64,000 bases of DNA, from contig JBJMHA010000041.1 of assembly GCA_045807625.1 (NCBI GenBank), forward strand, positions 201,228 through 265,227, read 5' to 3'. Below, in pieces: positions 3,931 to 13,135 of the stretch (position 1 is its first letter; every line of letters starts with the position of its first letter). The notes under the pieces are model-generated. The model was not told where the DNA came from and did not search any database. It saw only the letters and a program-made list of their open reading frames with translations. The position numbers were made by a program, and so were the translations under genes. The stretch comes from Thermoanaerobaculia bacterium. Its GTDB lineage: Bacteria > Acidobacteriota > Thermoanaerobaculia > Multivoradales > UBA5704.

Positions 3931-4159
3931 CCAGCCGCTCGGGCTGGGGTGGTGTCACCCGATTCGCGGCGCTACCGCGGGCCTGAGCCTGACGAAGAGG
4001 GTGGCACCTGTTTTCTTGTACTTGTTTTCTTCCGTACCTGGTCCCCGGTACCGGTCCGGGTTCTAAGCCGGCGGCCCGTCTCGCCTGGTACTGCTCGCGG
4101 CACCTCTTCTGGTGGGAGCGTGGTCCTTGAGGCCCCTTCCGGACGAGAAAGGAGTGAGA

Positions 4160-4306
4160 ATGAAGAAGAACGACACTCACACCGGACGAATCCTTGGCCG
4201 CAGGCTGGCCCGGGAGCTGACTCGCAAGGAGCTCGAGAAGGCGACCGGCAGCGTCCAGTGCTGGACCCTGACCGATCCTCCGGACGGCCCGTACCGCGAC
4301 CACTGA
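4160..4306 (+). CDS. putative RiPP precursor peptide 2
   Basis: 48-aa ORF MKKNDTHTGRILGRRLARELTRKELEKATGS|VQCWTLTDPPDGPYRDH. AGGAG lies 8 nt before the ATG. Leader motif LARELTRK parallels LSRETIRQ of peptide 1. Core has T-x-T-D-P-P-D. Confidence 0.5.
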   Translation: MKKNDTHTGRILGRRLARELTRKELEKATGSVQCWTLTDPPDGPYRDH

Positions 4307-4418
4307 CGCACCGCGGTTCGATCCGGTTCCACCCATCTCAAGACCCGGCCCGACCGGCCGGGCCTTTCTCCAACCCCCTTTATGCGTCTTCCGCTCTTCG
4401 AGCCCTGGAGGATGTTGC

Positions 4419-5543
4419 ATGACGCGAGTGTTGATCCCGACCTATCCCGAGGACCTTCACGTCGAGGAAGTGGCCCTGGCGCTGGAGGACCGGGGGCACG
4501 AGGCGGTTCTGTGGTGTGGCACCGACTTTCCCACGCTCCAGACAGGATCGATCGACGTCCGTGGCGGGGAGATGGGCTGGGAGATCTCGGGGCCGGGCCT
4601 GGAGGGAGGGCGTCCGCCGTTCGACGTGGTGTGGATGCGCCGTCCGACGCCGCCGGTTCTCCCCCCGGATCTTCACCCCGGCGACGCGCCCGTGGCGCGG
4701 CGGGAGTGCCGGGACTTTCTCGACGGGCTCTACCATCTGGCCGCGCCGGAGGCCTTCTGGGTGAACCCTCTTGCGACCCGCGCCCGCTCCGAGCTGAAGG
4801 CGGTGCAGCTCCGGGAGGCGGTGCGCGCGGGCCTGGCCGTGCCGCCCACGCTGATGAGCAACGATCCCGCCCGCATCCGGCGGTTCGTGGAGGAGCTCCA
4901 GGGCCGGGCGGTGTACAAGCCATTCTACCCCGCGCAGTGGGAGAGCGAAGACCGGGTGGCGGTCCTCCTGACCAGCGAGGTGAGCGTGGACGATCTGCCC
5001 GAGGACGAGATCCTGCGGCTCACCCCCGGCATCTTCCAGGCCAGGATCGACAAGGCCCACGAGCTGCGGGTGACCGTGATGGGCGACTGCTTCGTGACAG
5101 CCCGGCTGCTCTCGCAGGAGCTGGAAACGACGCGCCTGGACTGGCGGGCCGCGGGGCCTCGCCTCCGGGTGGAGCCGGACCGGTTGCCGCGGGACGTGGA
5201 GGAGGCCTGCCGGCGGCTGATGGGAAACTTGGGGCTCCTCTTCGGCTGCTTCGACTTCATCGTGACGCCGGAGGGGGAGCACGTCTTCCTGGAGGTCAAT
5301 CCCGCCGGCCAGTTTCTGTGGGTCGAGGAGGCCAACCCGGAGCTGCGGCTCCTGGCGCCCTTCGTGGATTTCCTGCTCTCGCGCGATCCCGCCTTCCGCT
5401 GGCAACCGGAAGCGGACACCATCCGCCATGCGGACTACCGCCGGCGGGCCCTGGACCGCATCGCGGCGCTCGGCCCGGTGCACGTGCCGGTGGCGGACGT
5501 GTACATCAGCAGCGATCTGCCCGCGGAGGCCTCTAAGAGATAG
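4419..5543 (+). CDS. ATP-grasp ribosomal peptide maturase (MdnC/MvdD-like)
   Basis: 374 aa. N-terminus MTRVLIPTYPEDLHVEEVALALEDRGHEAVLWCGTDFPT matches, from memory, the microviridin ATP-grasp ligase N-terminus (VLIVT...FPT). ATP-grasp fold features follow. Read-through in both antisense frames is a GC artefact. Confidence 0.75.
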   Translation: MTRVLIPTYPEDLHVEEVALALEDRGHEAVLWCGTDFPTLQTGSIDVRGGEMGWEISGPGLEGGRPPFDVVWMRRPTPPVLPPDLHPGDAPVARRECRDFLDGLYHLAAPEAFWVNPLATRARSELKAVQLREAVRAGLAVPPTLMSNDPARIRRFVEELQGRAVYKPFYPAQWESEDRVAVLLTSEVSVDDLPEDEILRLTPGIFQARIDKAHELRVTVMGDCFVTARLLSQELETTRLDWRAAGPRLRVEPDRLPRDVEEACRRLMGNLGLLFGCFDFIVTPEGEHVFLEVNPAGQFLWVEEANPELRLLAPFVDFLLSRDPAFRWQPEADTIRHADYRRRALDRIAALGPVHVPVADVYISSDLPAEASKR

Positions 5544-5566
5544 CCTCGTTGGCGAGGAGAGGCGCT

Positions 5567-5595
5567 ATTTCCAGCGCGCCTGTTTAGCTTGGATC
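5567..5595 (+). terminator. Rho-independent terminator after the ATP-grasp gene
   Basis: aggcgctatttccagcgcgcc hairpin followed by tgttt. Confidence 0.5.
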
Positions 5596-11057: not shown

Positions 11058-11261
11058 AGCGCCTCCTCCTTTCAATCGAACGCCACGATTGGGGGACCGG
11101 CTCTGCCGGTCCGAAGGGTTTGCGAATTGGAACGAGTAAGAGGTTCAATGCTAACACAAACAGGGGCTGTTCGGTGCGCTGCGATGACCGGACGACCCTC
11201 GTCTCCCGCGTCCGGCCCACTCTTCCGCCGCCCGCGGGCGCTGCTCGAAGGCGAGGTCCTG

Positions 11262-11528
11262 GAAGGGGCGGGCGTCGTTCTTGGCCTGATGGGAGCCTGA
11301 AGTCGGCGCTCCTGGGAGGAGCGGGCAGTGGAGGTGTGTCTGGATGGGGTGTTCGAGCGAGAATATCGGAAGTTTGAGTCGGCAATTCCGGTCGGATTTA
11401 GGCCTGGGAGGCCCCGAGATGGCCCAGGAAGGACGCCGAAAGGCTCTTGGAGAGAGGCTTCAGGGCAGGAGAGGGGGGAGAATCGGCGTTATCGAGACTT
11501 CTCTTCGTCGAAGAGGGTGGCACCTGTT
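11262..11528. repeat. partial copy R2 of the 385-bp repeat (3' two-thirds)
   Basis: Aligns to the 3' part of 11516-11915. Ends with gtcgaagagggtggcacctgtt. Confidence 0.75.
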
Positions 11529-11915
11529 CGCACCTGGACGCCTACGCCCTGTTCGTGGCGGCCTACCGTGCCGCTGCCGAGAAGCTCCGGGCCGGGATTC
11601 GCGACGTGGTGTTCCCCCAAGGGAGCTTCCCGCCGCCGATGCCGTTTGTGGGCTGATAGGCCGGCGGGCGTCGTTCTGGACCTGATGGGAGCCTGAAGTC
11701 GGCGCTCCTGGGAGGAGCGGGCGGTGGAGGTGTGTCTGGATAGGGCGTTCGGACGAGAACACCGGAAGTTGACGTCGGCAATTTTGGCTGGATTTGGGGC
11801 TGGGAGACCACCCGGAGGACGTCGAAAAACCACCAGAGAGGGGCGTCAGAGCGGGGGAGAGGGGAGAATCGGCGTTTATCGACGCTCTTCTATGTCGAAG
11901 AGGGTGGCACCTGTT
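11516..11915. repeat. ~385-bp repeat unit R3
   Basis: Starts ggtggcacctgttcgcacc and ends tgtcgaagagggtggcacctgtt. Tandem with R2. Confidence 0.8.
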
Positions 11916-12169
11916 TCGCAGCGGGGGCTCTTGAAAGGAGCCACGGGCGGAGGAAGGCCCCGACGACGACCCTCTGCCTAGAACCCGATGGGTGGCTGGT
12001 GCGGATCCTCGCACCCAAATATCGAAAAGACGGGCGCGCAACCGGATCGGATCGGCAGTCTCGACCTCCCCCCCCACCCAGAGCCGGGGAACTCCCGGAA
12101 GGGAGAGGTACGGGGAGTTGACAAGAGCCTTCTGATGGGTGGCACCTGTTCTGGGTTCCTATGATTACT

Positions 12170-13135
12170 TAGGTGGCACCTGTCCCCCCGGAGGATCAGC
12201 CAATGGGGTAAATACTATGTTGAAACTGAGGTTGGTTCTAATATGCAAAAATGAGTTAAGAGCTTTGTAAATGAGAAGCAGGATGAAGTGCGCGATCTCT
12301 TAATGATCTTGCGGTTCATATCCCACGGAATATTTTCCCGTGACAGGGGATGAAAGCAACTCCGCGAGAGCCCTGACTCTTAAGCGTTTCTACGAAGTTG
12401 CGATCAAATTGAGGATAGCATTCAGAAGCAGGGAGGGTGCCTAATGATTTTCAGGCTTCCATTTGGAAATGGTAATAAAAAGGGGGCCAAAATCAATCGC
12501 CTATACACCTCCTGCCTTGACATGAAGTCCCGCCATAGCCTTTCGTCCTTCCTTTATGACGTACTCGTGTAAGCTCAAAGCCTGGGACATCTCCGGGGCC
12601 TCGATTTCACCCGTTTTCCATTGGTGTATTTTTGCGTTTATGTCTTGTTCTGACATATTATTTAGAAACCGAAGAATCTTGTCAAGGTCGACGAGTTCGG
12701 TATCGCTTAGGAGGTCGTAGAGAATGCCGGCCCGTAGGGCCTCTTGCACGAAGATCCGAAGTGTGCGCGTATAGTCGATGTAGTTGAAAACTGCTTGTTT
12801 GTCGCCAGCCGCCATCTTGAGTCGGATATCCGCGAATGAATGCAACCAGAGGTCGCACAGGGAGACATTGAAAGCCGCCTCACGCTTCAAACCAGTGACT
12901 ATCTTGGTGCGGTCGCGTGACCGCTTGACATGCTCGCTGACGTAGAAAAGCACGATGGAGAAAATAAAGCCAGCCAAGGTCCCTATAAGAGTCGCGAGTG
13001 CGCGACTCCAGAAGCTGGCATCAAGCGTAACAGTTGACATGGGGGGGCCTCCCAGCGTGTTCATGAACGTGTTTAATATGTAATCCAATATCAATATTGT
13101 ATGCCGCCCGATTGTGTCTTTATATACCTAGATCT
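12170..13135. other. AT-rich (~45% GC) island, probably horizontally acquired
   Basis: Sharp composition drop relative to the ~68% GC flanks. Left border carries two GGTGGCACCTGT(T/C) motifs at 12136-12184. Confidence 0.6.
12501..13041 (-). CDS. hypothetical single-TM membrane protein inside the AT-rich island
   Basis: Start MSTVTLDASF with GGGAGG 6 nt upstream. TM segment LIGTLAGFIFSIVLFYV. No family recognised. Confidence 0.5.

Follow-up and report, generated by a model that had tools for sequence, protein, structure and literature searches.

A one-directional array of terminal repeats of a RAYT-like Y1 transposase gene among accessory genes of a Thermoanaerobaculia bacterium

The motif array and the truncated gene copies

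We analyzed a 64,000-nucleotide stretch of a Thermoanaerobaculia bacterium genome (GenBank assembly GCA_045807625.1, contig JBJMHA010000041.1, positions 201,228 to 265,227; hereafter the window), in which about 14 copies of a short motif follow one another in a single direction over an 8.6-kb stretch of accessory genes. The intervals between them hold graspetide genes, genes for peptides resembling ribosomally synthesized and post-translationally modified peptides (RiPPs), a higBA toxin-antitoxin pair, a thiaminase-like lipoprotein gene and an AT-rich island. The motif is a real feature and is mostly explained by the end repeats of a Y1 transposase of the RAYT/TIRYT type. A preliminary description of this DNA had located motif copies at positions that all do hold one, and had seen that the motif bounds the ~385-bp repeat units, higBA, the lipoprotein gene and the AT-rich island and separates two graspetide precursor genes. 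We observed the same boundaries, and the bases 3' of GTT(C) are indeed different in every copy.

When the window was searched for GGGTGGCACCTGTT with two mismatches at most, 10 matches were found, all on the + strand between 3999 and 12184, for 0.26 expected by chance; none of 100 shuffled sequences attained 10 matches. The exact 9-mer GGCACCTGT occurs 11 times between 4003 and 12183, always on the + strand, and is found nowhere in the other 55 kb of the window. The motif is clustered and not spread evenly within the 64 kb, an even genome-wide density being what the preliminary description had held to speak against a boundary role. A weight matrix built from the motif copies gave extra degenerate + copies at 7691 and 8799, and a search with one mismatch gave further ones at 7707 and 3619, for a total of three to five degenerate copies beyond the 11 exact ones. 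A relaxed core search recovered a single inverted copy, GCGAATCGGGTGACACC, on the - strand at 3951-3967. In this window, right (direct) ends and left (inverted) ends stand at about 14 to 1.

Two full ~385-bp units (7717-8092, unit A, and 11529-11915, unit C) are each composed of a short open reading frame (ORF), a non-coding tail of ~240 nt and the motif, the ORF ending with FVAAYRxAAEKLRxG..FPxGSFPPxxPFVG and the stop codon. A peptide search with this ORF returned only 'hypothetical proteins' of 43-81 aa from Thermoanaerobaculia assemblies, one of them 100% identical. The pattern GARAGGGTGGCACCTGTT, searched in species-representative genomes, gave four loci on the Acidobacteriota chromosome OY970373.1, three of which are contiguous. 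One of these loci (L022:1839-2759) carries an intact parent gene of 306 aa, whose last ~45 codons correspond to the short ORF of the window and which is followed by the same tail and motif. Each ~385-bp unit is a copy of this gene, hereafter the Y1 gene, that has lost its 5' part. Unit A holds its last ~42 codons (7715-7843 including the stop), a ~236-nt tail (7844-8079) and the motif at 8080-8092; unit C holds its last ~40 codons (11537-11656 including the stop), a 246-nt tail (11657-11902) and the motif at 11903-11915. Since units A and C have an identical 5' junction, the 385-bp unit was itself duplicated as a unit. In a third unit (11226-11528, unit B), which has an internal deletion, 42 nt from the middle of the gene (11226-11267, corresponding to the ALLEGEVLEG region) precede the tail and the motif at 11516-11528. 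An internally deleted fragment of the tail at 9481-9544 ends with the motif at 9532-9544. No intact Y1 gene was found in the window, where the gene is represented only by the remnants at 7715-7840, 11537-11650 and 11226-11267. For annotation, the 43-81-aa 'hypothetical' Thermoanaerobaculia ORFs examined are the C-terminal end of the Y1 gene, and those of the window are truncated remnants.

Remnants of the Y1 gene differ in length, and each of them directly follows a motif copy at its 3' edge. We observed this for the copy at 11516 in the window, at position 11644 in the joined stretch L020+L022+L010 of OY970373.1 and for the protein P0005.

The Y1 transposase family and its terminal repeats

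The 306-aa protein matches the Pfam family Y1_Tnp (PF01797, IS200-like transposase) with 23.4 bits, for a gathering cutoff of 23. It belongs to a family of more than 1,300 homologs that vary very little in length, many of which carry PF01797 and many of which bear the JGI name 'REP element-mobilizing transposase RayT' (REP, repetitive extragenic palindrome). In a 15-member alignment, H62 and H64 of the HUH motif (SNHxHLLL) and Y123 (RLRYxLxHGxKE) are invariant. A profile search of PDB sequences gave only a weak match, to ISDra2 TnpA. The AlphaFold model (predicted local distance difference test, pLDDT, 77.9; predicted template modelling score, pTM, 0.75) had as its top Foldseek match the E. 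coli RAYT bound to a REP hairpin (4er8_A, E 1.6e-4, template modelling score, TM, 0.67), followed by the TnpA proteins of ISDra2, IS200 and IS608. By Pfam, invariant residues and predicted structure, the 306-aa protein is a RAYT-like Y1 HUH tyrosine transposase, a type of enzyme acting on single-stranded DNA. RAYT-like enzymes occur widely, as a rule in one copy per genome, and seem to be domesticated; their function is a long-standing question, and we know of no transposition cycle demonstrated for them. The Y-motif of the present family, RLRY[GVIC]L[AGS]HG[AC]KE or Y---HG, differs from the signatures of the TnpAY1 classes, Y---NP of class 2 included (class 1 Y---Q, class 2 Y---NP, class 3 Y----Q; Quentin et al. 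2018; PMC6006769, Table 1).

Paralogs of the Y1 protein from a single genome share only 75-77% identity. The C-terminal half of the protein (~150-306), with the blocks LEGLWFDR, PLPCW, KSPAPAFHA and FPxGSFPP, is conserved as strongly as the catalytic core and forms long helices in the predicted structure. No relative of the family was found in viral contigs, and a phage or integrative-element origin was dropped on this ground.

We searched the core [GAC][GC][TC]GG[CTA]A[CT][CT][TC] around the family's Y1 genes at 80 loci from metagenomes and three from assemblies, with counts made on 57 non-redundant loci. On the coding strand, between +205 and +290 after the stop, the core is present at 35/57 loci, in comparison with 0/57 on the opposite strand and 1/57 in a control window. 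Upstream, between -30 and -260, an inverted core is present at 37/57 loci vs 9/57 for a direct one. The downstream core typically lies ~245 nt from the stop codon. The motif variants agree between both ends of a locus: L041 has GATTCGGCTGGCACCTCTTC at both (GCTGGCACCT), with a 20-nt perfect terminal inverted repeat (TIR) at -42 and +249; L062 has GGTGGAACCT, L025 GGTGGTAC and L048 GAATCGGGTGGCACCT (gaatcgGGTGGCACCT), each at both ends. The most invariant part family-wide is TGGCAC and the family core is G[GC]TGGCACCT. A gene placed between inverted cognate repeats at roughly fixed distances is a layout of the REPtron/TIRtron type, as described for RAYT-like genes (PMC2817692; PMC3733652). In its intact form, this layout consists of an inverted copy 40-200 nt upstream, the gene, the ~245-nt tail and a direct copy ending with ...GGTGGCACCTGTT(C).

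Comparison of closely related loci places the edge of the element. The loci L030 and L037 are 96.3% identical through the gene and the tail, and their similarity is lost one base after the 13-mer, i.e. after ...GGCACCTGTTC; homology returns 5.5 kb further on in L030 and 2.6 kb further on in L037. This break fixes the element edge to the base, with the boundary directly after ...GGTGGCACCTGTT(C). These data show that the motif is the terminal repeat of the Y1 gene and that the breakpoint lies at its 3' edge. The joined stretch of OY970373.1 and the locus L026 share flanking genes, with 86% and 94% identity. Between these flanks lie 16.4 kb in OY970373.1 vs 9.8 kb in L026, largely different, with the common pieces reordered. 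One cassette common to both begins 6 nt (OY970373.1) and 37 nt (L026) after a motif copy. The comparison of strains that the preliminary description had proposed bears out its expectation in both pairs, as the indel differences begin at the motif 3' edge, exactly so for L030 vs L037.

One-directional arrays were also observed elsewhere, with 11-13 copies over 12 kb in OY970373.1, 6 copies in L026 and 8 copies within 5 kb in L043; clusters of closely spaced motifs were seen in L042, L049 and L053. In related loci of 13-21 kb, motif copies lie only beside the Y1 gene. Among the genes between the copies of the related arrays, found in both orientations, are toxin-antitoxin pairs and genes for small secreted peptides rich in cysteine, for cupins and for phosphoesterases, and this content resembles the accessory genes of the window. 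The pattern scan of the 18-mer GAGAGGGTGGCACCTGTT matched only two regions of a 7.66-Mb chromosome. Its matches in Actinobacteria (L002, L006, L009, L019 and L021) fall in an unrelated intergenic region and are consistent with chance at the size of the database. This Actinobacterial site lies in a conserved, divergent intergenic region between a helix-turn-helix (HTH) gene and a ~100-aa gene, with TGTCGCC/GGCGACA inverted repeats and no Y1 gene nearby, and we judged it a chance match to an operator-like region.

Individual motif copies, tails and neighboring genes

On the + strand at 3616-3670, a degenerate sequence resembling the motif, GGCAGCACCTGTC, precedes a small leftover of the Y1-gene 3' end, GCCTACCGTGAAGCCGCCGA; this motif-like sequence may be a gene-internal look-alike (...GCCCTGTTC...) instead of a true end copy. 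The sole inverted copy of the window (3951-3967) and the direct copy GGTGGCACCTGTT between the two graspetide precursor genes (4000-4012) form a 60-nt inverted pair with hairpin capacity (-17.3 kcal/mol, z -2.9), which is REPIN-like or empty-element-like. Two copies of overlapping period, CTTGGCACCTGTT and GGCGGCACCTGTT, stand at 5759-5786, right after a tandem repeat. Two degenerate copies, GAATCGGGTGACACTTGGT and TGGGGCACTTGTT, form the left junction of unit A (7691-7716), and another, GGTGACACCTGTC, is found just past higB (8799-8811). At 8872-8909, the copy GAATCGGGTGGCACCTGTT is followed 19 nt on by a partial second copy, GGGCACCTGTT; the first carries the family-wide inner flank (GAATCGGGTGGCACCT), which is also carried by the inverted copy at 3951. 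The last copy, GGTGGCACCTGTC (12172-12184), forms the left border of the AT-rich island. Just outside the right end, one or two further repeats of the outer motif half (GGCACCTnnnnn) are often present with a spacing of 13-19 nt, as seen at L073, L074 and L077 and in the window at 5759-5786 and 8878-8909; these repeats may be the footprint of repeated events at the end.

The preliminary description had stated that the motif often follows a CTCTTC-N-GAAGAG mini-palindrome and had proposed a search for attC-like bulged hairpins. The mini-palindrome is complete at 11516 and 11903 and incomplete at the other copies (CTCTTC/GAGAG at 8080, the GAAGAG half alone at 4000 and 9532). It is also lineage-specific, since the six bases before GGTGG vary in relatives (GGAAAG, GAATCG, GTTTGG, ACTTGG and others). 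A second mini-palindrome, GGTG-G-CACC, is broken in the GCTGG, ACTGG and CCTGG variants. RNAalifold detected no hairpin at the motif, and the DNA folds of eight contexts share no structure, with fold z values from -2.9 to +0.6. An attC-like or REP-like hairpin was rejected because the CTCTTC/GAAGAG stem and the GGTG/CACC palindrome both fail across lineages. Two other candidates were set aside: a diversity-generating retroelement, as the differences from unit to unit are not adenine-specific, and a known RNA family, for which Rfam gave only sub-threshold microRNA-like matches, on 41-bp palindromic repeats.

Between the stop codon and the motif, the length of the tail is kept family-wide (~220-260 nt) and its sequence is conserved within a lineage only. 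The lineage-conserved parts are a small hairpin (GCGCTC/GAGCGC) and the invariant sequence GGAGGTGTGTC, which could pair with the GCACCT of the motif. For a structured RNA in the ~245-nt tail, RNAalifold gave this one small hairpin, with compensatory changes in one sequence, and an AGGTGT-GCACCT pairing of two invariant blocks. As these blocks are absent from more distant members, a structured RNA was not retained. A small protein encoded in the tail (MEVCLD...) was rejected, its frame being broken in L091 and absent in unit A. A further non-coding block of 125 nt, ending in the motif copy at 12138-12150 (12026-12150), is 85% identical to a block before the motif copy upstream of the intact gene of OY970373.1. 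It has TTGACA 17 nt before the motif copy (window 12026-12137; L022 1269-1383), and may represent either a promoter or a tail from a different lineage of the family.

Unrelated tandem or palindromic repeats adjoin motif copies in three genomes. They are found in the window at 5625-5753 (43-bp x3), 5879-6110 (21-bp periodic) and 9027-9320 (41-bp palindromic), and in relatives at L022 1395-1740 (60-bp x6), L026 9060-9490 (33-bp x13) and L020 4950-5230 (~21-bp x12).

Among the neighboring genes, a graspetide-type cluster (3781-5543) is composed of precursor-like ORFs at 3781-3930 and 4160-4306 and an ATP-grasp gene at 4419-5543 with a weak match to the MvdD pre-ATP-grasp domain (E 0.002); the direct and inverted motif copies split the first precursor from the rest of the cluster. 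Two small cysteine-rich ORFs on the - strand (6918-7094 and 7206-7442) have leader-like N-termini, one of them with a weak match to a class I lanthipeptide leader (E 0.1), and no modifying enzyme was recognised beside them. The higBA-type pair (8106-8672, - strand) includes an HTH_3 antitoxin at 8106-8432. Its toxin ORF is only 64 aa long vs 93 aa for the HigB-like gene of L001 (pair at 8686-9296), so the higB of the window may be disrupted; in L001, the pair also adjoins a Y1-gene remnant. The lipoprotein (9597-11075, - strand) associates a Thiaminase-1 domain (E 3e-55) with a C-terminal MVL mannan-binding domain, an unusual combination. The AT-rich island (12185-13100) has a GC content of 0.51 vs ~0.68 around it, starts exactly at the last motif copy and holds one 197-aa ORF on the - strand without a Pfam match.

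Origin of the array and comparison with known systems

We consider it probable that an Acidobacteria RAYT-like Y1 enzyme recognises and cleaves the motif as the right end of a REPtron/TIRtron-type element, and that the array in the window is a decayed series of these ends in a single direction. Of its ~14 right ends, four keep the tail and/or 3' fragments of the gene (units A, B and C and the fragment at 9481), and the rest are solo ends. Following the general activity of Y1 enzymes known from IS608, ISDra2 and the E. coli RAYT (PMC6006769), a Y1 enzyme encoded elsewhere in the genome would recognise the motif on one DNA strand and nick it at its 3' edge, presumably after GGCACCTGTT(C). Repeated one-ended joining at this nick could then multiply right-end fragments, the 385-bp unit included, and the motif 3' edge might thereby become a hotspot for the gain, loss and reordering of DNA.

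Several observations weigh against this reading or are not accounted for by it. As the 64 kb hold no intact Y1 gene, activity needs a copy elsewhere, or else the array is a fossil. The canonical arrangement is one of inverted ends and the array is almost wholly direct; known Y1 enzymes recognise hairpins and no hairpin is conserved at or beside the motif; and some breakpoints between OY970373.1 and L026 lie off any recognisable motif copy (e.g. L026 8637). The tail conserved in length and lineage-specific in sequence, the partial duplication of the outer motif half and the unrelated tandem repeats that abut several motif copies are also left without explanation.

A passive graveyard is a serious rival, although we hold it to be unlikely. 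Whole elements would have inserted repeatedly at a permissive locus and decayed by deletion, homologous recombination and slippage, leaving the motif with no present role. The absence of an intact Y1 gene in the window, the many degenerate copies, the internal deletion of unit B, the partial loss of the tail at 9481 and the strain breakpoints away from the motif are all in agreement with such a history. However, nested whole insertions should leave left ends as often as right ends, and one inverted copy was seen vs ~14 direct ones. Independent truncations at different positions of the gene all meet the same motif 3' edge, and the break between L030 and L037 is exact to the base. A graveyard explains the decay, but neither the 14:1 excess of right ends nor the repeated joining at one edge. 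The preliminary description had favored a site-specific recombination or attachment site with cassette-like boundaries; the boundary role, with a 5' side that is conserved and a 3' side that varies, stands, and the identity as an att or attC site of an integrase does not. An integron-like site of a tyrosine or serine recombinase would fit an array in a single orientation, with these two sides and with units that hold toxin-antitoxin modules and small accessory genes and vary in content between strains. Yet Pfam gave no integrase and no DDE transposase among the ~38 larger ORFs of the window that were scanned, and the gene calls of the related arrays (L024-L026) list no integrase. There is no GTTRRRY core (pyrimidines follow GTT) and no shared attC-like fold, and the motif is tied to a Y1 HUH gene by its position and by the matching variants of both ends, so that we regard this origin as very improbable.

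Even less credit was given to the two remaining explanations. For a reiterated regulatory site, either a sigma-54 -24 box or the operator of a DNA-binding protein, one can invoke TGGCAC as the most invariant part across the family and the few copies that happen to show GC at the -12 spacing (e.g. 11903, TGGCACCTGTTTCGCA). But the -12 bases differ in almost every copy, the copies at intact genes point outward, away from the gene, and a promoter would not explain why strain homology ends at the motif; we find this explanation highly implausible. A sigma-54 promoter proper (TGGCAC-N5-TTGC, GG-N10-GC) was ruled out by the variable -12 element and the outward-facing copies. The preliminary description had rightly remarked that the -12 element is not conserved, and the likeness to a -24 element that it had pointed out is superficial, the motif facing outward at both ends of the gene. 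That the motif could be a generic genome-wide REP, dense here by chance, has in its favor a RAYT-like associated gene, REPs being the classical partners of RAYTs (PMC2817692). It is scarcely credible when all copies of the 64 kb lie within 8.6 kb, those of related loci lie only beside the gene, the 18-mer matches two regions of a 7.66-Mb chromosome, and neither a GTAG foot nor a conserved hairpin is present.

Beyond the probable decayed array of right ends, the arrays could conceivably be a working gene-cassette platform run by a Y1 HUH enzyme and not by an integrase, although we think this improbable. Any segment flanked by two direct copies could leave as a single-stranded circle and insert anew at the 3' edge of a further copy. 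If true, a RAYT-like family would capture, reorder and exchange small accessory genes such as toxin-antitoxin pairs, RiPP clusters and secreted peptides at a fixed chromosomal hotspot, and an HUH-driven platform would serve Acidobacteria as a functional counterpart of integrons.

Several known systems share traits with this family. The IS91/ISCR rolling-circle elements, which undergo one-ended transposition next to GTTC, have Y2 HUH transposases and are bounded by an ori and a ter end, the former adjoining a GTTC/CTTG target. We take as their likeness to the present element the constant end downstream of the transposase gene, the variable other end and the boundary after ...GTTC in most copies. 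This is a resemblance only, as the present protein is Y1-type by fold and Pfam and hence not a member of that group. Integron arrays likewise have short one-directional boundary sites between small accessory genes, toxin-antitoxin genes included, with a content and order that vary between strains, and both known systems process single-stranded DNA. In contrast, no IntI, attC architecture or attI/Pc platform was found here, the genes lie in both orientations and the site belongs to an HUH enzyme. With the IS200/IS605 elements (IS608, ISDra2), the family shares the catalytic fold, strand-specific one-directional behavior, a base-exact boundary and the lack of the usual target duplications, and an enzyme of this type requires ends in direct orientation to cut a segment out. 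However, the IS200/IS605 TnpA is ~150 aa long, near-identical in multiple copies and has subterminal hairpins without TIRs, whereas we observed a 306-aa protein, paralogs of 75-77% identity and TIRs.

The REPtron (E. coli RAYT or TnpA-REP, 4er8, with REPs and bacterial interspersed mosaic elements, BIMEs) provides the best structural match, and here too the gene lies between inverted cognate repeats whose variants track those of the gene. REPs are nevertheless 20-40-nt hairpins with a GTAG foot, dispersed in hundreds (typically >100), whereas the present copies are clustered in all stretches covered here and have neither a conserved hairpin nor a foot, and the Y motif of the REPtron is Y---NP in comparison with Y---HG here (PMC6006769, Table 1). 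The TIRtron/TIRYT system (Di Nocera et al. 2013, PMC3733652) also has a RAYT-like Y1 gene between inverted repeats that are not REP hairpins, repeat families of moderate size, often in dimers or clusters, and genomes with several divergent paralogs that each have a repeat of their own; Acidobacteria are named among its main hosts, as here. The TIR motif of its majority group is GGGGWSAS (PMC3733652), which differs from the (GAATCG)G[GC]TGGCACCT found here. The acidobacterial TIRYTs published in 2013 form a different group, with HVH, Y..NPV and ~200 aa, compared to SNH[FLM]H, RLRYxLxHGxKE, a fixed length of 306 aa and a long C-terminal domain for the present family. The TIRtron paper (PMC3733652) reports no kilobase-scale one-directional arrays that enclose accessory genes and carry 5'-truncated gene ends, and such gene-enclosing arrays with attached truncated gene ends seem not to have been described in the RAYT/TIRtron literature compared. 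Overall, with a base-exact end, a boundary of strain divergence, truncated copies that meet at one edge and gene-enclosing arrays on the scale of kilobases, this family offers a readable case for the function of RAYTs.

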